Made by a program: the position numbers and the translations under genes. Source: Candidatus Giovannonibacteria bacterium (lineage in GTDB: Bacteria; Patescibacteriota; Minisyncoccia; UBA11713; 2-01-FULL-45-33). Taken from it: a DNA stretch of 64,000 bases. The stretch's first letter is position 1. Each line of letters starts with the position of its first letter. The notes beneath the pieces are model-generated. The model did not search any database. It had not been told where the DNA came from and was given only the letters and a program-made list of their open reading frames with translations. The stretch spans positions 28,212 through 92,211 of the forward strand of contig JACOXN010000003.1 in NCBI GenBank assembly GCA_016176295.1, read 5' to 3'. Of this stretch, positions 1 through 61,719 are shown in pieces.

Positions 1-941
1 TTATTTCCAAAGGCGCCAAAATAAAAGTCATCTTTTTCGGCTCCACCGAAGAAACCAAATGGTTCGCGGACTATGTGAATCAAAACCCTTCTTTGGGATA
101 CAAAATAGAAGTTGTAACCGCCGAGGAAGATATCCGAAATGCTCTCAAGAAAAAACCGGCTGACTTGATCGTAGTCGAACCCAACGCTCTCGAAAATAAG
201 GAATTGGTAAAAATGTTCTACGAGGTGCTCCCTATGGGAATTTCAATAATGAATTTCGCCGAGTTCCACGAGCATCTAACCGGCAAAGTCCCCACTTCGC
301 TCATCACCGAGTCATGGTTCCTGGAAAATTTGATGGAATTGAACAAACAATCATTCGAAACAATGAAGCGTGGGATAGATATCATAGGCGGAGCCGTGAT
401 ACTGGCCATCACTTTTCTCTTTTATCCGATAGTCGGACTTTTCATAATTTTGGATTCAGAGGGCCCCGTTCTTTTCAGACAAGCTCGCGCGGGAAAGAAC
501 GGAAAAGCATTCAGCCTGGTAAAATTCCGCTCGATGGTAAAAGGCGCCGAAGAAATCAGCGGACTTAAAGAATCATCGGGCGGCAAAAAAGACGCAAGGA
601 TCACGAGAGTCGGCAAAATCCTCCGGAAAATTTATATCGACGAACTGCCGCAGGTGATAAACATAATCAAAGGAGAAATGTCTTTCGTAGGTCCCCGGCC
701 GGAGCGCCCGGAGTTCGTCAAAGTTTTAAAAACAAAAGTTCCTTATTACGACATGCGCCTTTTGGTGCGCCCCGGCATCACCGGCTGGGCGCAGATAAGC
801 ATGAAGAACGATGCTTCCGTGGAAGACGCACCGGAAAAGCTGCAATACGACCTCTATTACATCAAAAACCGCACCATCACCATGGATCTCGCCATAATGC
901 TAAAAACCCTCACCACGATGCTCGGGAGAAGCGGCAAGTAA
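1..941 (+). CDS. Polyprenyl-phosphate glycosyl-1-phosphate transferase (bacterial sugar transferase family, WbaP/CpsE-like); 5' end lies outside the window
   Basis: The frame is open from base 3 (ISKGAKIKVIFFGSTEE...), so the GTG at 75 in the ORF track is probably internal. One TM segment (IIGGAVILAITFLFYPIVGLFIIL) is followed by a catalytic domain with KFRSM, DELPQ, FVGPRPERPEF and RPGITGWAQI motifs. Confidence 0.85.
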   Translation, partial: ISKGAKIKVIFFGSTEETKWFADYVNQNPSLGYKIEVVTAEEDIRNALKKKPADLIVVEPNALENKELVKMFYEVLPMGISIMNFAEFHEHLTGKVPTSLITESWFLENLMELNKQSFETMKRGIDIIGGAVILAITFLFYPIVGLFIILDSEGPVLFRQARAGKNGKAFSLVKFRSMVKGAEEISGLKESSGGKKDARITRVGKILRKIYIDELPQVINIIKGEMSFVGPRPERPEFVKVLKTKVPYYDMRLLVRPGITGWAQISMKNDASVEDAPEKLQYDLYYIKNRTITMDLAIMLKTLTTMLGRSGK

Positions 942-955
942 ACGTGATTCTGTTC

Positions 956-1095
956 AGGAAAACTAAAGTGTTTCTGAACGGATTTTGCGCCATTTTCAGC
1001 AAGGTCTCCGCAGCAGCGGAGTGAAAATGTGCGCAACCCTCGGAGCCCCGCGCTGGCGGGGCGAGAATGAGTGAAAAAACACTTAAGTTTTTCCT
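956..1095. repeat. Structured repeat element, copy A (nested helices P0-P4; candidate structured RNA or REP/MITE-like element)
   Basis: Pairings read directly from the sequence. P0 956-964/1086-1095; P1 966-973/1077-1084; P2 985-998/1022-1036. P3 hairpin CTCCGC-AGCA-GCGGAG at 1006-1021; P4 hairpin GCCCCGC-GCTG-GCGGGGC at 1045-1062. Homologous to 39624-39759 in the same orientation. GC-rich relative to its surroundings. Lies between two convergent genes and touches the stop codon of the 1094-4789 gene. Confidence 0.8.
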
Positions 1096-4000
1096 AAAAC
1101 AAATTCGGGGGCGAGCTGATGGCTATATTGTTTTCAAAAGTTAAATTCAAAACGTTTAAAGTCGAGTTGGCGGTAAGGATGGCGAGAGAGTTGCTGGAGA
1201 ATAATATACCATCAAGCGATGCGTTTGAATTTAGTATCATAAGACCTGTCCCCGGCCCGCCTCCGGGAGCGCTTGTGTGTTCGCTGAATTCAAAATTGGC
1301 AAGCGAAATGTTTGAGCCTCCGTCTATTCTCATACCGATGTTATAATTTTTCTCAATTTTCCCCTGGTTCAAATTTAGTGTCCCCCCGTTCACGCTAAAC
1401 CCCGCGCACTGATTGTTGCAGGCTGCCGGGCCTCCCCCGCCGTGGCGCAAAGTAAATCCGGCGCCGTAAGCCGCACTCCCGGAATTCATAACGATGCCTT
1501 TCCATTGGCCGGGAGCCGAATCACCCAACGAAGAAAACAAAATATCGTCCGCCGAAACTCCTTTCATTTCCAAAGTTCCATTGATTTCCAACGAACTCGA
1601 ATCACCAGCACCCAATATCTTTGTTCCCGATTCTATAACCAAGCCGAAATTCTGCGGCACGGAAAGCGTGGTCCTTGAGGGAATAATGTAAGGCAACGGA
1701 TTGGCCGAAAGCGTGGTTGTGCCGGAAGAAGAAGTGAGAGATCCGGAAAGCGAAATACCATTTATTCCATTGCTGGAACCGCCGTTTCCGGAAAAAATTC
1801 CAATCCTGCCATTTGACGTAACGGCATCGGAAATATTTCCGATAAATTCGTTATCCGAAACCGAAGCATCCGAACTTTGCACATTGAGCCCGTAATAATT
1901 CCCGGAAAAAATGTTACGAGAAATATTCGGCGTTCCTCCGCCTATTGTCAGGCCGCTCTGATATATTGTAGAGTTTTCGGAAAACAAATTGTCTGAAATA
2001 TCGGCATCTGATCCGGATACTTTTAGGCCGTCGCTCCAGGATTTTTCAAAAATGGAATGAGTAATCTCCGCCGGAGAACTTTCGACAGCTACCATGGAAC
2101 GAAAGTTATTCGGCGTATTGCCGTACCATCTTCCACCGTAACGAAATCTGGAGTGAGATATTACATTTTGTGATGCAGGGCCGACCAACAATACATTCTT
2201 CCAGGCACCCGGAGACGGCTCCGTGGTGGTGGCATCGCCATTCGTATCTCCGCCGAATTCATCGTCAAAGATGCTGGTGAAAACTATCGGTTTCTCTCCG
2301 GTTCCTTCCGCTTTTAAAGTGCCTTCGATGTTGAGCAGCGCATCGCTGCCGAATTTGATAACAACTCCCGGCTCGATATTTAACACGACGCTAGGTTTGA
2401 CTGTAAAATTTATATTTCTGGGGATAATGTACGGGCTTCTTCCGAAGATTAAAGTTTTGTCGCTTTCAAGAACCGAACCCGGAGCGATGATGTAATTCAG
2501 GCTATTCCGGTTTTTCGGAGTTGCCGATAAAAACAAACCATTTTTATCGTGCCCGCGCGTGACAACCGTGCTATCGGCGCTTCCCCAGTTGTACGGGTCC
2601 GAAGAAGAAATATCCGCATCCCTCCGTTCCATGCTGTATCCGCTTCCGAAGCTTGATCCGCCGCACCATCTGCCTTCGCAAAGAGGCACGCGGTCGATGG
2701 TTGTCGAACCCCGGCTTAAAATTAATACTTCTCCCGAATTTGAAAGTCCGGAACCCGCGGCTCCGCCAGCCGGCGGACCGCTGAAAGGTAAAATCAAATC
2801 AGCCGGAATGTCGCTTACGGTTTCATCGTTTGAACGCTCTATCAAAAAATATCCGTGAGCCGGTAAAACTCCGGAAAGCGGAAGGTAAGGCACGCCGTCC
2901 TCCGCTTTCAATACCCAGCCGCTAAGATCTATGGGCAGAGATGTGCGGTTATACAGTTCCATCCATTCGTCGGACGGGTCAGAGGGAGTTCCCATCCAGG
3001 CGACTTCGTTTATTACCACCGGGCTCGCCGAAACTTCAACGGTTTTGGAAAGAGGAGGGCTTTCGTTTCCGGTTGTGTCAACGGCTTTCGCGGAAAAAGA
3101 ATAAATTCTGTTGTCTTCGGCCGCAAAAACGGTCGAGGTGGCATGCGTATTTAAAAAATCAAAACCGCTGCAATAAAGTCCGCCGTTCATGCAAGAAATA
3201 TCATAGTACTCCAAGTCAGCTGTATCTGAATTCCATGCCAAAGTAAAAGATCCGGGATTTAAGAGGCATGATTCAAAAGATATGGAATCCGCACATTCGA
3301 GAATTGAGAAAGAAATATCGGGAGGAGTGACATCATTGGTCAACCCGGCAGGTTGACCAGGCGGGAAAACACTCGGTGTTTCAAGTGGTTCAACACCGAG
3401 TGTTGAGGAGCCAGGCAAATCGGAGGAGGGCGCGGCTTGCTCCAACGTCATCGTCGGAGTTCCTCCGCCAAATCCCGGCACGTACGGAATAGATGTTGGA
3501 ACCGGCGCTGGCGTTGGCACAATTTCATTGGATGTGAATTCTCCCAAAACTTCGCCTTCCGTACCTCCCCTCGCACACTCCCTGCCTGCCGGCAGGCAGT
3601 CTTCTAAAGGAGGAGAAATTGAATTGTTCTCGCCCGGCAGAGAAAAACTCGGTGCCGCTTCGGCAACAGTGTCGTTTCGCGGTAATGAGATTTGAAAAGC
3701 GCTCGCCGGAATTTCATCAATGAGCGGGGTCGGCTCCGCCTGCTCCGCCCCAAAAGTTCCGGCCACTGCCGAATATATTTTTTCCGACAATGGTATTCCC
3801 TTCGCCCATAATTCTTTGCTTTTCCTCTCCTTTTCCGCTTCCTCAAAAAATAATCTCATTACTCCCGCGCCGTGTAATACGGCCTGTTTGGAAAGATGTG
3901 ACCAGTAGTCGGTGAGGATTAGGTTATCAGGATCATCTAGAAAATAGTCTTTTTTCTCTGGACTTTGCCATTCAAATTTAGCTAATCGTGCAGCTAATAT

Positions 4001-4789
4001 AATATCATTGTTATACGCAAATATTACAGACTTTCCGTTACTTCTAATTATTTCAACCTCATTAGATATTTTTGGTTTAACATAATCAGTAAACAAAATC
4101 GTATCTTTACTAAAAAAATTACTATTTGAATAACGAGACAAAGAATCAAAATAATCTTGAAGCGTACCAAACGCCAGTGGTTGTGCAGAATCGCCATACA
4201 AAGATTTTGCTAACCCCTCAATTTCAGTGGGCGTAAATTTTTTAGTCCAATACTCGTAAGGGCTGCCGAAATCCAAAACCGGCGGATGAGGATCGTTCCT
4301 TGTGTGGTCCGGCACAGATGCGTCTTCCACTAAATGCAAAATATTTCCCAAAGCAATAAACCCGCGCTCCTTATCTGTCCAAACATAGTCGTGTACGGCC
4401 CTCTGCCAAGAATAATCGGTACGCGAGTCGAAATATCCCATAGAAACTGCCGCAAGTGAGCTGCCGCTAATGGCATACGACGGGTCATACAAAGACTGGC
4501 GAAAAGTGCTCTCCGCCCAAATTTTGGACGCAGGAAAACCCCAAAGGCCCCTGTCATAAACGGGGTCATAAAAATGATTCATCGGGCGTATGTTTTCGTC
4601 CTCGATAATACTCCCTATTTTAACCCATTCTTTCTCTTCCGTAGTCAATGAAAGTTCCGGATAATACAAATTAAACAGATCGACTATTTCATCGGTTAAC
4701 GCCGGATGGGTTGTTTGATCGCTATAAGCAAAAGAAAACAGCGGGGAAAAGAAGGACAATAAAAGCAAAGTGGTGACTCGTATTTTCAT
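1094..4789 (-). CDS. Giant secreted surface protein: signal peptide, Zn-phospholipase-C-like domain, Pro/Ser-rich linker, lamin-tail domain (LTD), right-handed beta-helix repeats
   Basis: 1231-aa ORF. Signal-like N-terminus MKIRVTTLLLLSFFSPLFSFAYS. HLVEDASVPDHTRNDPH His/Asp cluster resembling Zn-dependent PLC. LTD signature VVINEVAWMGTPSDPSDEWMELYN..GWVLK..GYFLIERS..LSNSGEVLILS. The C-terminal ~450 aa are periodic G/S/N-rich repeats (ISxNxF, NGI) typical of parallel beta-helix proteins. Confidence 0.8.
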   Translation of the reverse strand: MKIRVTTLLLLSFFSPLFSFAYSDQTTHPALTDEIVDLFNLYYPELSLTTEEKEWVKIGSIIEDENIRPMNHFYDPVYDRGLWGFPASKIWAESTFRQSLYDPSYAISGSSLAAVSMGYFDSRTDYSWQRAVHDYVWTDKERGFIALGNILHLVEDASVPDHTRNDPHPPVLDFGSPYEYWTKKFTPTEIEGLAKSLYGDSAQPLAFGTLQDYFDSLSRYSNSNFFSKDTILFTDYVKPKISNEVEIIRSNGKSVIFAYNNDIILAARLAKFEWQSPEKKDYFLDDPDNLILTDYWSHLSKQAVLHGAGVMRLFFEEAEKERKSKELWAKGIPLSEKIYSAVAGTFGAEQAEPTPLIDEIPASAFQISLPRNDTVAEAAPSFSLPGENNSISPPLEDCLPAGRECARGGTEGEVLGEFTSNEIVPTPAPVPTSIPYVPGFGGGTPTMTLEQAAPSSDLPGSSTLGVEPLETPSVFPPGQPAGLTNDVTPPDISFSILECADSISFESCLLNPGSFTLAWNSDTADLEYYDISCMNGGLYCSGFDFLNTHATSTVFAAEDNRIYSFSAKAVDTTGNESPPLSKTVEVSASPVVINEVAWMGTPSDPSDEWMELYNRTSLPIDLSGWVLKAEDGVPYLPLSGVLPAHGYFLIERSNDETVSDIPADLILPFSGPPAGGAAGSGLSNSGEVLILSRGSTTIDRVPLCEGRWCGGSSFGSGYSMERRDADISSSDPYNWGSADSTVVTRGHDKNGLFLSATPKNRNSLNYIIAPGSVLESDKTLIFGRSPYIIPRNINFTVKPSVVLNIEPGVVIKFGSDALLNIEGTLKAEGTGEKPIVFTSIFDDEFGGDTNGDATTTEPSPGAWKNVLLVGPASQNVISHSRFRYGGRWYGNTPNNFRSMVAVESSPAEITHSIFEKSWSDGLKVSGSDADISDNLFSENSTIYQSGLTIGGGTPNISRNIFSGNYYGLNVQSSDASVSDNEFIGNISDAVTSNGRIGIFSGNGGSSNGINGISLSGSLTSSSGTTTLSANPLPYIIPSRTTLSVPQNFGLVIESGTKILGAGDSSSLEINGTLEMKGVSADDILFSSLGDSAPGQWKGIVMNSGSAAYGAGFTLRHGGGGPAACNNQCAGFSVNGGTLNLNQGKIEKNYNIGMRIDGGSNISLANFEFSEHTSAPGGGPGTGLMILNSNASLDGILFSSNSLAILTANSTLNVLNLTFENNIAISSPPNLF

Positions 4790-6071: not shown

Positions 6072-6335
6072 TTATATATACTCAATTTGATACGACCGTT
6101 CGTTTTTGAGTATATGACCATTGAGCAGACTGGCCTGTACCAAGCGTCTCGTGTGTTCCGAAATTGTTTTAATGTTTGCCTCTAAATCGTTCGCTATCCC
6201 TTCAGCGGTAATGCCTTCAAATTTATCAACAAGCATCAAAATCTCAATACGTCGATGATTTGCAATGCCTTTGAAGTTTCTCTCCATTTGCCTGGCCGTT
6301 TTTGTTTTGTCTTTCATAGTATTTAACATAAGCAC
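6072..6335 (-). CDS. ArsR/SmtB-family winged-helix transcriptional regulator
   Basis: 87-aa ORF. FKGIANHRRIEILMLV..EGITAEGIANDLEANIKTISEHTRRLVQASLL is a typical ArsR HTH core. Alternative ATG starts at 6329 and 6317. Confidence 0.75.
   Translation of the reverse strand: MLMLNTMKDKTKTARQMERNFKGIANHRRIEILMLVDKFEGITAEGIANDLEANIKTISEHTRRLVQASLLNGHILKNERSYQIEYI
6078..6115. repeat. 38-nt dyad-symmetric repeat, copy 2
   Basis: ATACTCAATTTGATACGACCGTTCGTTTTTGAGTATAT. Overlaps the last codons of the ArsR gene and sits ~25 nt upstream of the PaaX-like start. Confidence 0.75.
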
Positions 6336-6338
6336 ATC

Positions 6339-6366
6339 ATTCCAACATTCTTGAGAATGTTGGAAT
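6339..6366. promoter_or_regulatory. Perfect 12-4-12 palindrome immediately upstream of the ArsR gene (candidate operator)
   Basis: ATTCCAACATTC-ttga-GAATGTTGGAAT, 4 nt upstream of the annotated GTG. ArsR/SmtB repressors classically autoregulate through imperfect 12-2-12-type inverted repeats. Confidence 0.5.
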
Positions 6367-6498
6367 CAAAAAATATTCAGTAATATCTACTCCGCATTAA
6401 TTTCTGATATTTACATCCTATATTTTTTATCACAAAGAGAGGTTAAGCATTCTCTAAATCGACAAGTCATTCTAGTTATTGCGCAATATTGAACTTAA

Positions 6499-38962: not shown

Positions 38963-39613
38963 CTATTTTTTCAGAAGAAAAATGTAACCCAGAGGATATT
39001 TTTCTTTAAGCTGCGGCCTTAGCTTCAGTAAAACTCGGTCAAGTAAATAATATATGGGAAAAACCGCGAGCTTTAAAACGCCGGGCAGAGGAAACGAAAC
39101 CATAATATTGTAGCTTACCGCGCACGGCCCCAAACCGACTTCTTTGACGACTACATTCTTAAAACCGGCTTCCGCAAATATCTTCTTCAATGACTCCTTT
39201 GTATACCTGAAATAGTCATGCGGGTCCGCGTGATAGCTCATCATGAAAGGCACAAAACCCAAAACCTCGTTACCGGATTTAACGACCCTTTTTGCCTCGC
39301 CTATCAAAAACCTGTAATTATAAATATGTTCCAGAATGTTGAACATGAGCACCTGATCAACACTTTCATCCGCATACGGCAGCGGGTCTTTTTCAAGGTC
39401 TACGGTCTTGCCGATTGCATGCAGGCTTTTGAAATCAATATTTATAATCTCCGTACGGGGCTCTTTTTTTAAGAATTGAAAATAACTGGGGTTTACACCC
39501 CCGCCCACGTCAAGTACCTTTCCTTTGACCGTATAATTGGCAAGCTCCAGGTTCATCATTGTCCGGAGCAGACTTTTTTTTCTCCAAATCCCTTTAGCTA
39601 TTTTAAAAAACAT
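38963..39613 (-). CDS. Class I SAM-dependent methyltransferase
   Basis: VLDVGGGVNP SAM motif and VDQVLMFNILEHI. Start moved to the ATG at 39613 (MFFKIAKG...) because the upstream 51 codons of the track ORF merely translate repeat copy B. Confidence 0.7.
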   Translation of the reverse strand: MFFKIAKGIWRKKSLLRTMMNLELANYTVKGKVLDVGGGVNPSYFQFLKKEPRTEIINIDFKSLHAIGKTVDLEKDPLPYADESVDQVLMFNILEHIYNYRFLIGEAKRVVKSGNEVLGFVPFMMSYHADPHDYFRYTKESLKKIFAEAGFKNVVVKEVGLGPCAVSYNIMVSFPLPGVLKLAVFPIYYLLDRVLLKLRPQLKEKYPLGYIFLLKK

Positions 39614-39623
39614 GATTTTTAGA

Positions 39624-39759
39624 GACGGACGAATGAGTCTCTGAACGGGTTTTGCTGCCTTTTTGGCATGGTCTCCGCGAAGCGGAGCAAAAAGGTCAGC
39701 AACCCTCGGAGGCCGCCGCTGGGCGGCCGAGAATGAGTGAAGAGACTCAATCGTCCGTC
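39624..39759. repeat. Structured repeat element, copy B
   Basis: P0 39624-39632/39751-39759; P1 39635-39642/39741-39748; P2 39652-39665/39688-39702. P3 CTCCGC-GAA-GCGGAG at 39673-39687; P4 GGCCGCC-GCTG-GGCGGCC at 39711-39728. Intercistronic, between the GT4 stop (39747) and the methyltransferase start (39613). Confidence 0.8.
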
Positions 39760-40835
39760 GATTCAAATAAATTAATAAACTCTCTTACTCCTTTCTCTTT
39801 GCCAAATCCTTTGGAAAATTCCAGCGCTTCAATCCTGGCTTTATTATACGCTATTTCATCCGAAAGCAGAGACTTGATGCGGCCTTGGAAACATTCGATA
39901 TCACCGACTTCGCACAAATAATTTTCCAAAGATTTCGGCACGAGTTCCCGAATGCCGCCAATATTTGAAGCCACAAATGGCACACCCGACGCCATCGCTT
40001 CCAAAATAACGCGCGGCGAGCCTTCCTCGCGCGAAGGCATCAGAAAAACACGGGCGTCTTTAAAATATCTTACCACTTCAGCATTTGCTACGGGACCCAA
40101 AAGTTTTACTTTTCCCGTCAGACCGGAATTTTCAATTTCCAATTTACAATTTTCGAATTCCGGCCCGGCACCGATAACCACAAATTCCACGTCGTCATTT
40201 TTAAAAGCTTCAGCTATTTTGGGCACAAAATCAACTCCTTTTCTTTTTGACAAATGATGAACGAAGAGCACGATTTTCGGGGATAATTTCTTGTTGGCAT
40301 CTGGCTTGAATCTCTCCGTGTCTATCCAATTCGAAACCACGCGGTATTCTTTTACACCGTAACGCGCAACATACTCTTTGGCGAGCGACTCCGGGCCGGT
40401 GACCAAAATTGAGTTACGTAAAATAAACCGGAAAAGTTTTTCTTTGAGCCAATTTTGCTTAAAGAGCCACGGCATTCCGCGGTTCCAGTAAAAAACCTTC
40501 ACTTGGCGGCTAAGCCGCCAAGTGGTTAATAAGACTGCCAAAACGCCATAATAAGAATAGTGGACATAAAAACCCCTGAATCCCGAAGATAGAAGTTTGA
40601 AACACATCCAAAGCATCTCCAAAAAACGCAACGGTGGAAATTTGTATTTTTGAACATAAATCTGCGCCTCCCCTAAATCAATTTTTTGTCCGAAACTTAG
40701 TTTCGGACATTTTTCCACGATAACAAAAATATCCGCGGTCTTTGCCGCTTCGCGGATAAGCAGGTAATTATAAAAAAAATGGGTATCGGTACCCTCCTCG
40801 TAAATAGGTAAAATATAGGCAACTTTTGGTTTCAT
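39747..40835 (-). CDS. Glycosyltransferase family 4
   Basis: LFVHHLSKRKGVDF, VIGAGPE, FLMPSREEGSPRVILEAMASGVPFVASNIGGIRE (E-x7-E region). Confidence 0.85.
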   Translation of the reverse strand: MKPKVAYILPIYEEGTDTHFFYNYLLIREAAKTADIFVIVEKCPKLSFGQKIDLGEAQIYVQKYKFPPLRFLEMLWMCFKLLSSGFRGFYVHYSYYGVLAVLLTTWRLSRQVKVFYWNRGMPWLFKQNWLKEKLFRFILRNSILVTGPESLAKEYVARYGVKEYRVVSNWIDTERFKPDANKKLSPKIVLFVHHLSKRKGVDFVPKIAEAFKNDDVEFVVIGAGPEFENCKLEIENSGLTGKVKLLGPVANAEVVRYFKDARVFLMPSREEGSPRVILEAMASGVPFVASNIGGIRELVPKSLENYLCEVGDIECFQGRIKSLLSDEIAYNKARIEALEFSKGFGKEKGVREFINLFESTDD

Positions 40836-59273: not shown

Positions 59274-59329
59274 ACGAAAAAGTAAAAGCCCTGTCCTGAT
59301 CTGCCAAATGGCGGATTACGGACAGGGCT
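59274..59329 (-). terminator. Intrinsic terminator after the M24 peptidase gene
   Basis: AGCCCTGTCC...GGACAGGGCT 10-bp stem, followed on the minus strand by TTTTACTTTTT. Confidence 0.6.
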
Positions 59330-59340
59330 GATTTTTTATT

Positions 59341-60549
59341 CTACGGAATAATCATCGATCCCAGATCTTTGGGAAATTGCGTGAGATTGCGGCAGCCGTC
59401 TTTGGTGACAAGCACCATGTCTTCGATACGGATGCCGCCAATGGGTATACCTTTTTTACTTAGTAAAAAGCTTGGCTCAATTCCATTTTGATAATAAAGC
59501 CCAGGCCCGACGGTCACAACATTCCCTTCCGACAAAAGCGAACCTGAAGAATTTATCCGCGGCGCCTCGTGAATATCCAATCCAACGCCGTAACCGACAC
59601 CGTGAAAAAAACCTTCCATCGGCCTGGTTTCCGTATTGGTATGGTAACCGTCTTTTTCAAAGTCTCCGATAGTGGTGTCATAAATATATTTTCCGTCAGC
59701 TCCATCCATCACCATACTGATACCCTTTACTTGTCCGCGAAGTACTCCGTTGTACATATCTTTTAGTTCTTGCGGCGGTTCGCCTTTGAAAAATGTCCGC
59801 GTCATATCCGCGTAATAATGCGTTTCGAGCGAGAGCGGGAAAACATCCATAACTATCGGTTGGTGAGCCGTTAAGGGACCGAAACCTTTGCAATGCGGGT
59901 CGGCGGCCTGGAGTCCGCAGGAAACAATAGTATCAACTCCGAGATAGCCTTGGGAATAGAGCGAGCCATCAATTATTTTTCGCAATGATTCAGAAGTGAC
60001 TAATCCGCAATTGATGTAAATATCCGGCGATCCATAAGCAATAATTTTGTCCTCTTTGATATAACATGACCACAAAAATACCAGAGCTTTGCCGACGGCA
60101 TTCTCAACCGCCCTCTGTGCTTTTTCTATCTCGGCCACTTCCCAATCGGTTTTAATGGCGCGCTTCGGATAAAACGGCGGCGGCGCGGCAACTATGCTAA
60201 ACGATTTAGCCAGATGATCTTTTATGCCACACGGAAATGTTTCCGGCACTATGATCTTTTGCACGCCGTGCTTTTGAAGAAAATTCGCAACATATCCTTT
60301 GGTTTTGCTGTCATAGTCGGATAAATTCACGGCCTCTATTTCGGGTCTGCATTCTTTCGCCGCCCTTTCAAGCTCTAAAGGACTAATCAAAATAAATGAT
60401 TTTCCATCCGGTATTTCCACCAACACAACCGGATCCGGCGCTTTAAACCCTGTCCGCCACAAAATATCAGCTGAAAAATGCGGGGGACCCAGATCAGTCG
60501 TTCCCCATAACACCAAAGCGGTTTTTTTGACAGCAGTTTTTCTTTTCAA
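59341..60549 (-). CDS. M24-family metallopeptidase (Xaa-Pro aminopeptidase / creatinase fold)
   Basis: Pita-bread metal ligand blocks: VMDVFP..YYADMTRTF, HGVGYGVGLDIHE, TVGPGLY, GIRIEDMVLVT. Confidence 0.8.
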   Translation of the reverse strand: MKRKTAVKKTALVLWGTTDLGPPHFSADILWRTGFKAPDPVVLVEIPDGKSFILISPLELERAAKECRPEIEAVNLSDYDSKTKGYVANFLQKHGVQKIIVPETFPCGIKDHLAKSFSIVAAPPPFYPKRAIKTDWEVAEIEKAQRAVENAVGKALVFLWSCYIKEDKIIAYGSPDIYINCGLVTSESLRKIIDGSLYSQGYLGVDTIVSCGLQAADPHCKGFGPLTAHQPIVMDVFPLSLETHYYADMTRTFFKGEPPQELKDMYNGVLRGQVKGISMVMDGADGKYIYDTTIGDFEKDGYHTNTETRPMEGFFHGVGYGVGLDIHEAPRINSSGSLLSEGNVVTVGPGLYYQNGIEPSFLLSKKGIPIGGIRIEDMVLVTKDGCRNLTQFPKDLGSMIIP

Positions 60550-60633: not shown

Positions 60634-61719
60634 TTATTGGTTTTGTTTAGCGAGCGCAGACTTAATGATATGGTCCAAAAGCTTTGAAAAAGAAATTCCG
60701 GAAGCGGCGGCAGCTTTGGGAAGTAGACTCCGGGCAGTGAGGCCGGGAATAGTATTTATCTCAAGGATATAAATTTTAGCTCGATCTTTCGCCCAGATCA
60801 TATCAGTCCGCGAAAACCCGGAGCATCCGATAAGCACATGCGTTTTCAACGCGATGCCCTGGCATTCAGCCAAGATATCGTGCGGAACTTCTGCCGGAGT
60901 TATTTCATCCGAACCTGACTCGGCATATTTTGATTTGTAATCGAAAAAATCCCCCAGCTTGGGCACTATCTCTGTGGGCAGAAGCGGCGTTAAATTATTT
61001 TTACCGTCATCCAGCACTCCGCATGTGAGTTCAACTCCCGGGATAAATTCCTGTACCAAAATATTTTCTGAAGACATTGCCGCTTTTTTTACGGCTTTTC
61101 CAAGATCGGTTATTTTTTTTACGATGCTGACCCCGACGCTTGAGCCGCGGTCGGCAGGCTTCACCACCAAGGGAGCGCTGAACTTGTTTTCGATGTTTTT
61201 TAAAACTTGCTCGCTTTTATTCTTAAATTCCGAGGCTCCAAATGACATTGATTCCGGCATATTGAGCCCATTGGAAGAAAAAACTTGCTGTGAACGTATC
61301 TTATCCATGCCTAAAGCACTGGCCACAGCTCCAGACCCCGTGTAAGGAACCCCGGCGGAATCCAATATGGCCTGCACTTGGCCGTCCTCCCCGAACTCCC
61401 CGTGCATGGCGATGAAAACTACGTCTGCAAAAGAGCCGACGGAGTGGAAAAACTTTTCGGATGAAATTTCCAGGTGGGGGCGGCCGCCGCGGAATTTAAA
61501 TTCCGACCTTGTCCGCGGTGGGGCTAAGGAAATTTCAGATGAAAAGTTTTTTCCCGATGGTAAAAGCCATTCGCCTTTTTTGGTGATGGTCGCAAGCGTC
61601 GGCTCATATTTTGAGCGGTCCAAATACTGATGCACCATTTCCGCAGTCTTAAGAGACACTTCGTGCTCGCTCGAAGGGCCTCCTCCCAAAACCAAAACTT
61701 TTATCTTTTTCCTTGCCAT
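60634..61719 (-). CDS. ddl: D-alanine--D-alanine ligase
   Basis: VLGGGPSSEHEVSLKTA, FIAMHGEFGEDGQVQ, VVKPADRGSSVGV, INTIPGLT. Confidence 0.9.
   Translation of the reverse strand: MARKKIKVLVLGGGPSSEHEVSLKTAEMVHQYLDRSKYEPTLATITKKGEWLLPSGKNFSSEISLAPPRTRSEFKFRGGRPHLEISSEKFFHSVGSFADVVFIAMHGEFGEDGQVQAILDSAGVPYTGSGAVASALGMDKIRSQQVFSSNGLNMPESMSFGASEFKNKSEQVLKNIENKFSAPLVVKPADRGSSVGVSIVKKITDLGKAVKKAAMSSENILVQEFIPGVELTCGVLDDGKNNLTPLLPTEIVPKLGDFFDYKSKYAESGSDEITPAEVPHDILAECQGIALKTHVLIGCSGFSRTDMIWAKDRAKIYILEINTIPGLTARSLLPKAAAASGISFSKLLDHIIKSALAKQNQ

Follow-up and report, generated by a model that had tools for sequence, protein, structure and literature searches.

A branched palindromic element at a glycosyltransferase-methyltransferase junction in Candidatus Giovannonibacteria, a probable insertion from a low-copy family of Patescibacteria

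The window analysed here is a stretch of 64,000 nucleotides from a Candidatus Giovannonibacteria bacterium (contig JACOXN010000003.1, positions 28,212 to 92,211), and its most strongly folded part, which we call copy B, lies on the minus strand between the genes of a GT4 glycosyltransferase and a methyltransferase. Copy B is probably an inserted copy of a family of branched palindromes, about 100-155 bp in size, of the Patescibacteria (candidate phyla radiation, CPR), a low-copy mobile or selfish element of the kind represented by the Rickettsia palindromic elements (RPE) or by MITEs, the miniature inverted-repeat transposable elements; we put the probability of this reading at about 0.62. The family is previously undescribed in CPR, and our search of the literature found no description of such elements there. 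A regulatory role of copy B is at best a secondary consequence of its insertion.

Copy B as an inserted member of a family

Three related operons have no element at the junction of the GT4 and methyltransferase genes (L039, L038 and L041, with methyltransferase identities of 74%, 75% and 69%). In L039 the stop codon of the first gene and the start codon of the second overlap (ACATGA), and in L038 and L041 the pair either overlaps or almost touches. Given that these operons are without the element, we regard copy B as a lineage-specific insertion. Genes of the window are tightly packed, with intergenic gaps mostly between -4 and +20 nt, so that the 133-nt gap between the two genes is an outlier. 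Copy B fills this gap from the GT4 stop (39747) to the methyltransferase ATG (39613), as the first-pass annotation had proposed, and its outer stem, which the same annotation had run into the end of the upstream gene, indeed covers three sense codons (T-D-D) and the stop with its 5' arm. Orthologous GT4 proteins end in ...LFKKT* and ...LFKNKCY*, whereas the window protein ends in ...LFESTDD*; this difference indicates that its last residues and stop are encoded by the 5' arm. An identical copy B is found in an independent sample of the same species (L040), where the methyltransferase is also 100% identical. Environments that harbour the species include those of SRR12113420.

The coordinates and anatomy of copy B reported in the first pass were all correct on re-examination (Table 1). 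Its minus-strand RNA is predicted to form a three-way junction of -78.3 kcal/mol (z = -9.25, 200 shuffles), and the lowest-energy 140-nt fold of the whole window falls in this region (-82.1 for the plus-strand fold; mean -26.8, standard deviation 8.1). The outer stem pairs 39759-39741 with 39642-39624 over 19 bp with a single U.U mismatch. Read along the minus strand from 39759 to 39624, the order is GACGGACGAUUGAGUCUCU-UC-ACUCAUUCUCG-hairpin-CUCCGAGGGUU-long hairpin-AAAACCCGUUC-AGAGACUCAUUCGUCCGUC. The G+C content of the element is 58%, against 43% for the window. The arm pattern of copy B has two exact matches in the window, where 0.05 are expected, and a covariance model of the family finds copy B (139.8 bits, E ~1e-34) and copy A (143.5 bits; fold z = -7.36) and nothing else, the next best match scoring 13 bits. 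The earlier view that copy B is one of two copies is thus upheld.

Searches for a known identity gave no match. Rfam 15 has none at the gathering threshold in the whole window, and in the region of copy B only chance-level matches appear at E up to 10; a scan for tRNA and tmRNA found none, and a promoter and terminator scan of 39300-40100 found no convincing site. An intrinsic terminator was rejected, since on neither strand is P1 followed by a U-tract. Hammerhead and k-turn motifs were dropped after an informal comparison with their consensus, which the core nucleotides of the complementary strand do not match, and so was a tRNA-like T-loop. Retrons, omega-RNA and bridge RNA were set aside because no cognate protein lies nearby.

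The family was collected by exact-pattern scans of species-representative genomes and metagenomes and then with the covariance model, chance matches being removed; the model was built from 17 copies, and covariation statistics were computed on a 23-copy model alignment. The 27 members found, all in contigs of Patescibacteria, are 101-179 bp long, and the named source genomes among the titled ones with copies are Candidatus Giovannonibacteria. Copies recovered by the model that do not match the search pattern are the second copies of L032 and L023 and those of L042-L045, L050 and L051. Pattern matches in L005, L009, L010, L012/L019, L016/L020/L030 and L031 were discarded as chance, and those in L011/L017/L021 were rejected since they gave no score with the model. 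Two patterns run on viral contigs returned only chance matches, rejected by the covariance model, and blastn against phage and plasmid collections returned no match.

Pairing in the family is kept while the paired letters change. In 36 of 41 pairs both sides have changed, none of 500 shuffles reaches the observed covariation score, and the paired share of cells is 88%, whereas shuffles give 71% and sliding of the partners gives no more than 51%. All seven pairs of P2 have changed on both sides (96.5% of cells paired); in P3 all 14 pairs of the two distal helices (P3b and P3a) covary, and 5 of 9 do so in the basal helix. Copies A and B have the same loops and junctions, and their stems differ with every change compensated. 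The segments most conserved across the family are unpaired, namely CUCAUUCUCG, CUCCGAGG, the ACCRUGC bulge and AAAAYCCGUU, and they are kept also in copies found without the search pattern; likewise CTCATTCTC is kept in L042-L045, L050, L051 and L032b, all found without its use as a search pattern. Two short-form copies (L003 and L035) have no distal part of P3. In the copy embedded in miaA at L043:10556-10734(-), an additional hairpin of some 36 nt splits P2, so that one insert lies inside another. Two diverged copies in L032, 60 nt apart and in opposite orientation (1759-1903(+) and 1963-2102(-)), lie downstream of a MurE-like gene in a nested or clustered arrangement of copies of this family, hereafter family 1.

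We find no strand signal, either in the balance of G-U and A-C cells in the helices (15 and 19, with no excess of G-U) or in the energies of sense and antisense folds, the complementary strand folding as well or better in 18 of 19 copies. Where context is unambiguous, six loci are sense and two antisense to the flanking genes by our own tally. Besides copy B, copies between co-directional genes are found at RsmI/RsmE, RluA/L19, NuoK/NuoL and KhpA; copies between convergent genes are copy A and that of L023, both beside a sugar-transferase gene, and those at L27/L9 and MurE; an antisense copy lies between QueF and MscS. Neighbours are unrelated across the loci examined, with no association with a gene class or pathway, and thus the family is not devoted to glycan operons. 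The first-pass suggestion of an RNA regulating the glycan genes of this one operon fails for this reason, for want of the element in the three related operons, and because many copies lie inside miaA in either orientation and the helices show no excess of G-U over A-C.

Many copies lie inside coding sequence, in miaA. The element interrupts a continuous miaA open reading frame (ORF) in antisense orientation in L001, L002, L004, L024, L042 and L043, and in sense orientation in L007, L044, L045, L050 and L051; the sense copy of L007 is closely related to the antisense miaA copies and has homologous arms. For six of these genes, reached through MiaA homologues, the DNA confirmed the element in both orientations. 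The ORFs that bear it are 317-367 aa long (357-362 aa in L001, L002, L004 and L024), whereas insert-free MiaA homologues have 277-310 aa, with 39-45 residues between the motifs RAIEI and ELKKRI; in many MiaA proteins of Patescibacteria this stretch has 70-120 residues. What is added corresponds to the element read in frame -0, +0 or +1 (GETNDPLNGFSAVFGTVPE is an example of a peptide spanning such an insert), or to peptides of other palindromic families. A single reading frame open throughout the family was looked for and does not exist. A protein-database search aimed at copies inside ORFs, with the element's four open frames joined into one query, gave no scoring match. Given that all of these ORFs are open, we argue that the inserts are translated and not removed. 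Among homologues P0121-P0240 this linker is a hot spot for at least four insert families, for example RRGVDFAGF...EESKIN and ERLVFSKSFRS...TNYRFEKIQ, and two of them are sometimes adjacent, lengthening the linker from about 40 to about 120 residues.

At these loci the divergence of the element does not follow that of its host gene. Across 11 miaA loci, the identity of the element shows essentially no correlation with that of the flanks (r = 0.15): the close miaA genes of L024 and L050 (flanks 0.80-0.89) carry different variants in opposite orientation, and the distant ones of L002 and L007 (flanks 0.62-0.67) carry elements that are 87% identical. This decoupling, together with filled and empty junctions and with the flips, speaks for a hot spot at which the element has been acquired or replaced repeatedly, rather than for simple vertical inheritance. 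Conserved junctions, covarying stems, strand symmetry and the decoupling from the host point to mobilisation of a folded strand, which is undescribed for this phylum.

Two features concern the position of copies at the ends of genes. The stop codon of the upstream gene falls at element positions 13-15, nine nucleotides upstream of the core motif, in three unrelated loci (copy B, L014 and L025), and by eye a TGA, TAA or TAG stands no more than one base away from these positions in 10 of 23 copies, with UCA or UUA as its counterpart in the 3' arm; most of the copies embedded in miaA have no stop there, or have one in a frame that the gene does not read. An element so built tends to end an incoming ORF at once, which fits its survival at overlapping gene ends. 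Copy A and the copy at L023:3421-3565 both lie directly after the 3' end of a Bac_transf sugar-transferase gene and face a convergent gene. Their arms are entirely different, and the elements are 76% identical with flanks 70% identical; either they are an orthologous copy of old date, or sites of this kind have been used more than once.

Table 1. Features of copy B, its flanking genes and copy A, in window coordinates
Feature	Position	Strand	Basis or remark
Copy B, whole element, 136 nt, branched palindrome with three-way junction	39624..39759	minus	Fold and covariance model
P1 5' arm, GACGGACGAUUGAGUCUCU	39741..39759	minus	Holds GT4 stop TGA 39749-39747
Junction J1/2, UCACUCAUUCUC	39729..39740	minus	Most conserved family segment
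P2 hairpin, GGCCGCC-CAGC-GGCGGCC	39711..39728	minus	
Conserved junction UCCGA, within CUCCGAGGGUU	39706..39710	minus	Family alignments
P3 long arm and inner hairpin, with conserved 7-nt bulge ACCAUGC (39666-39672)	39647..39705	minus	
P1 3' arm, AGAGACUCAUUCGUCCGUC	39624..39642	minus	Ends 10 nt before methyltransferase AUG
GT4 glycosyltransferase gene, last residues S-T-D-D and stop from the P1 5' arm	39747..40835	minus	Pfam Glycos_transf_1, E 3.6e-35
Methyltransferase gene, 216 aa, true start ATG 39613	38963..39613	minus	Homologue lengths, coverage and N-termini
51-codon extension judged spurious, element frame +2, includes peptide RRTIESLHSFSAAQR	39614..39766	minus	In no homologue
Copy A	956..1095	minus	Between convergent sugar-transferase gene 75..941(+) and 1231-aa gene 1094..4789(-)

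The methyltransferase start and the rewired junction

The six-frame ORF 38963..39766(-) does read through copy B, as first noted; it has 267 aa and a TTG start. The methyltransferase start codon proper occupies 39613-39611, and the 3' arm of copy B ends at 39624. Among the best 120 homologues of the 267-aa query almost all have 191-226 aa, and they cover 72-85% of it, mostly 79-82%. Representative homologues begin M-(I/F)-(L/F)-K-I-A-K-G-I-W, in agreement with the M-F-F-K-I-A-K-G-I-W of the window protein when read from ATG 39613, and one homologue (P0001), 100% identical, is publicly called with 216 aa from 39613. The 51 additional codons have a counterpart in none of the best 120, including two longer ones (236 and 341 aa), and the Pfam methyltransferase domain begins at residue 80 of the 267. 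The first-pass predictions of the start and of an extension with no methyltransferase counterpart are both borne out. Judged from homologue lengths, N-termini and domain position, the extension is spurious. Frame +2 of the element, in which it is read, is free of stops in 8 of 18 family copies, so that an open frame at copy B is unremarkable and attributable to chance.

That the 267-aa ORF is nonetheless genuine, with copy B encoding an Arg/Pro-rich N-terminus of the methyltransferase, we consider extremely improbable. The frame is open from TTG 39766 and members of the family are translated inside miaA; set against this are the homologues, nearly all of 191-226 aa and none with a matching extension, the late onset of the Pfam domain, the identical protein already called from 39613, the chance opening of frame +2 elsewhere in the family, and a TTG that falls within the GT4 gene.

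How might such a junction arise and work? An element of this family would land, facing either way, at junctions between genes and in loops of coding sequence that tolerate it, and would persist only where reading frames survive. Its pairing is held as Watson-Crick complementarity on both strands, with a few unpaired junctions strongly conserved, and the machinery that copies or moves it presumably recognises the folded single strand. At the present site the insertion probably entered the A/T-rich stop/start overlap of the GT4 and methyltransferase genes; the 5' arm now supplies the last GT4 codons and the TGA, the methyltransferase retains its own ATG 39613, and the 267-aa read-through ORF is an artefact of a chance-open element frame.

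A motif resembling a Shine-Dalgarno sequence precedes only 10 of 51 window genes, and A and U predominate in start regions. Before the methyltransferase AUG stands UCUAAAAAUC, and directly before that the 3' arm of the 19-bp helix. When closed, this helix, within the footprint of an initiating ribosome, may mask the otherwise unstructured, A-rich start region. On reaching the UGA of the 5' arm, a terminating ribosome would have melted P1 and exposed the downstream start, and translation of the second gene would stay coupled to that of GT4, as in the ancestral ATGA overlap. The closed stem would also make a plausible substrate for RNase III, as in Correia-containing transcripts; a gene for this enzyme lies on a related contig (L043). 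By turning a 4-nt stop/start overlap into a 133-nt structured spacer, copy B has set up a natural experiment on how translation is coupled and mRNA is processed where Shine-Dalgarno sites are few.

Known systems and competing explanations

The closest known behaviour, by analogy, is that of RPE, and the next closest that of Correia and MITE elements. RPE are palindromic repeats of about 100-150 bp with several coexisting families and no known transposase, and they are inserted in frame inside protein-coding genes (PMC10969869). Both they and the present elements sit between genes as well as in frame inside unrelated genes whose ORF is kept, and here family 1 and at least three other palindromic families lie in frame in miaA and GT4 genes. 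RPE are described with a conserved peptide in one frame, whereas family 1 is read in three frames and both orientations, so that no peptide is conserved; its core, unlike theirs, is a branched three-way junction with covarying stems. The phylum too is a different one, and the likeness is drawn from behaviour, not from sequence comparison.

Correia elements of Neisseria undergo inversion in place, are cleaved by RNase III at their inverted repeats and are co-transcribed with operons (PMC10969869). Copy B, with its 19-bp closing stem, and the flipped miaA copies resemble Correia/NEMIS elements and MITEs as small, non-autonomous palindromic insertions. However, Correia inverted repeats have the same sequence in all copies and come with a TA duplication; here the arms differ from locus to locus with only complementarity kept, no duplication is seen, and 64 kb hold two copies. 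The family shares small size, multiple copies and presence/absence polymorphism (the three operons without the element) with MITEs, and was rejected as a classical MITE because terminal inverted repeats differ between copies though they remain complementary.

Other systems share single features with the family. Mycobacterial interspersed repetitive units (MIRUs) are intercistronic in operons, with ends that overlap the upstream stop and the downstream start region, and have been proposed to act in translational coupling. Copy B resembles them in its intercistronic position and in where its ends fall, but MIRUs are short direct tandem repeats with small ORFs and do not have the form of a branched palindrome, and none has been reported within coding sequence in both orientations. 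The attC recombination sites of integrons (57-141 bp) are recognised as folded single strands, conserve structure more than sequence and lie at the 3' ends of genes. In some family copies, likewise, the inner end of P1 bears AAC...GTT. The consensus RYYYAAC/GTTRRRY of R''/R' is absent, however, the inner P1 reading CUCUUCAC...GUUCAGAG, and attC was rejected; its centre is variable where that of family 1 is conserved, and the present elements are single copies with no cassette array and no integrase seen. REP and REPIN sequences are intergenic palindromes that form hairpins and are long-lived, and a domesticated HUH transposase (RAYT) has been proposed to move them as single-stranded DNA. REPINs are near-identical within a genome, strictly extragenic and marked by a GTAG motif, none of which holds here, and no RAYT was found.

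Several observations weigh against a mobile or selfish origin. Comparison of the filled window site with the empty sites of L038 and L039 shows an A/T-rich TTTATTT/AAAAA context with at most a 2-nt TC repeat and no clear target-site duplication. No transposase, integrase or reverse transcriptase occurs among the genes examined beside copies, and a Pfam scan of 18 of the 63 window ORFs found no mobile-element gene. Copies A and B are about 80% identical over the core, with fully different arms, which makes them old and diverged with no sign of a recent burst, and terminal arms are not conserved between loci, unlike the inverted repeats of a classical MITE. In four miaA loci the element is 93-97% identical and its coding flanks 70-80%, with sharp boundaries; the orthologous copies in the RluA/L19 spacer (L025 and L037) have diverged to the same degree as their flanks (78%), with the changes compensated so that the structure is kept; and the unpaired junctions are the most conserved parts of the element. 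This conservation in place and these compensated changes suggest selection in place, unlike the fate of a purely selfish relic. Template switching at quasi-palindromes could yield compensation of the Watson-Crick kind only, in the absence of selection. Such switching cannot explain the conserved loops, and so some sequence-specific constraint exists. Finally, the coupling and RNase III effects proposed above, plausible as they may be, follow from geometry only.

The same observations lend themselves to other explanations. Copy B could be a dedicated cis-acting mRNA element for processing, stability or coupling, selected for its effect on the flanking genes, with a conserved RNA-binding factor or RNase to recognise it. 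Conserved loops together with strong covariation are the classic signature of a functional RNA; copies of unambiguous context are mostly sense (6 against 2) and occur at the 3' ends of genes with the stop codon fixed in the 5' arm, the L025/L037 spacer keeps its structure, and a related contig encodes RNase III. An RNA, however, would be expected to leave a trace in the helices, where G-U cells are not in excess, and the antisense strand folds equally well or better. Copies lie within miaA ORFs in both orientations and are translated through, neighbouring genes are unrelated, three related operons do without the element, and no Rfam family matches. We hold this explanation to be unlikely.

Strand symmetry would be accommodated by a DNA site, a cruciform or single-strand hairpin that the host would use for a chromosome-organising, replication or recombination protein and that would be maintained in place regardless of orientation or coding context. 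Pairing that is Watson-Crick only, independence of orientation even inside ORFs, the sharp boundaries in miaA and a density of about one copy per 20-30 kb in the stretches examined are all consistent with it. Yet presence varies between related operons, element and host divergence are uncorrelated at miaA, no candidate binding protein was identified, and 140 bp with a branched core far exceeds chromosomal binding sites such as parS; a host site is thus somewhat less likely still than a cis-acting RNA. Removal at the RNA level, by a small self-cleaving ribozyme or an intron-like sequence, so that the element would enter neither the protein nor the mature mRNA, appears quite improbable. A compact three-way junction with invariant junction nucleotides does resemble small ribozymes, and a long closing helix brings the flanks together; but no Rfam ribozyme matches even at E up to 10, the hammerhead core motif is not visible by eye on either strand, and antisense copies could not act in the host mRNA. 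Every miaA-embedded copy, moreover, is open, across three frames and both orientations, which would be needless if it were excised. The insertion of a mobile or selfish palindrome remains for us the preferred account of copy B.

Other palindromes and further observations

Family 1 is accompanied by an unrelated branched palindromic insert, family 2, with a core of approximately CACGCATATTCGCC-NNNN-GGCGAATTGCTCT...GCGAAAGG, which the family-1 covariance model does not detect. It is translated as YSPxGELLxSxRRAAxG or, in reverse, LAQxDGGDLPAGRQGRA. It lies in frame in the GT4 orthologues L039:454-620 and L038:4414-4610, at different positions and in opposite orientations, and also in miaA of L001 (~6320-6440, minus) and L004, adjoining the family-1 copy. 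The 341-aa methyltransferase homologue (P0019) is fused to part of the next glycosyltransferase and contains LPAGRQG, a peptide characteristic of family 2; a further element-related mis-call or fusion is the probable explanation.

It is conceivable, though we hold this only tentatively and at less than even odds, that several branched-palindrome families of Patescibacteria reoccupy coding hot spots such as the miaA linker and GT4 and are kept there by selection on a folded single strand. If true, this would imply a structure-specific system of mobilisation or maintenance, either a recombinase acting on single-stranded DNA hairpins or a host protein that uses the sites. Among RPE-like systems outside Rickettsia, none before it would have had a functional fold directly supported by covariation, and copy B would be a living example of an element that rewires an operon junction through its own stop codon. 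Tiny, tightly packed CPR genomes tolerate palindromes of 100-150 bp inside essential genes and at overlapping junctions. For annotation, automatic or six-frame calls in such genomes will give false N-terminal extensions and odd Arg/Pro/Gly-rich insertions in enzymes, and a model of the family lets annotators mask these elements.

Further palindromes were seen in the window and in a related contig. Inside the D-Ala-D-Ala ligase gene (60634..61719(-)), positions 61448-61551 have imperfect 24-nt inverted repeats, 88% complementary, around a G+C-rich core (fold z = -3.7) and are translated as ...SSEISLAPPRTRSEFKFRGGRPHLEISSEKFF...; this looks like another in-frame palindromic insert in an essential gene. 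Within the 1231-aa gene 1094..4789(-), strong hairpins cluster (z = -5.5) at 3325-3474 and ~3630, where the large secreted protein has a low-complexity linker, and the nearby LPAGRECARGG resembles the LPAGRQG of family 2. At L043:1250-1351(-), directly downstream of the RNase III gene, a weak model match (20 bits) marks a different branched palindrome with arms of about 23 nt.

About 55 of the 63 window ORFs are on the minus strand, many with 4-nt overlaps. At 59290-59330(-), downstream of gene 59341..60549, there is a canonical intrinsic terminator with a G+C-rich hairpin and a U-tract after it, which indicates that this genome uses ordinary terminators.

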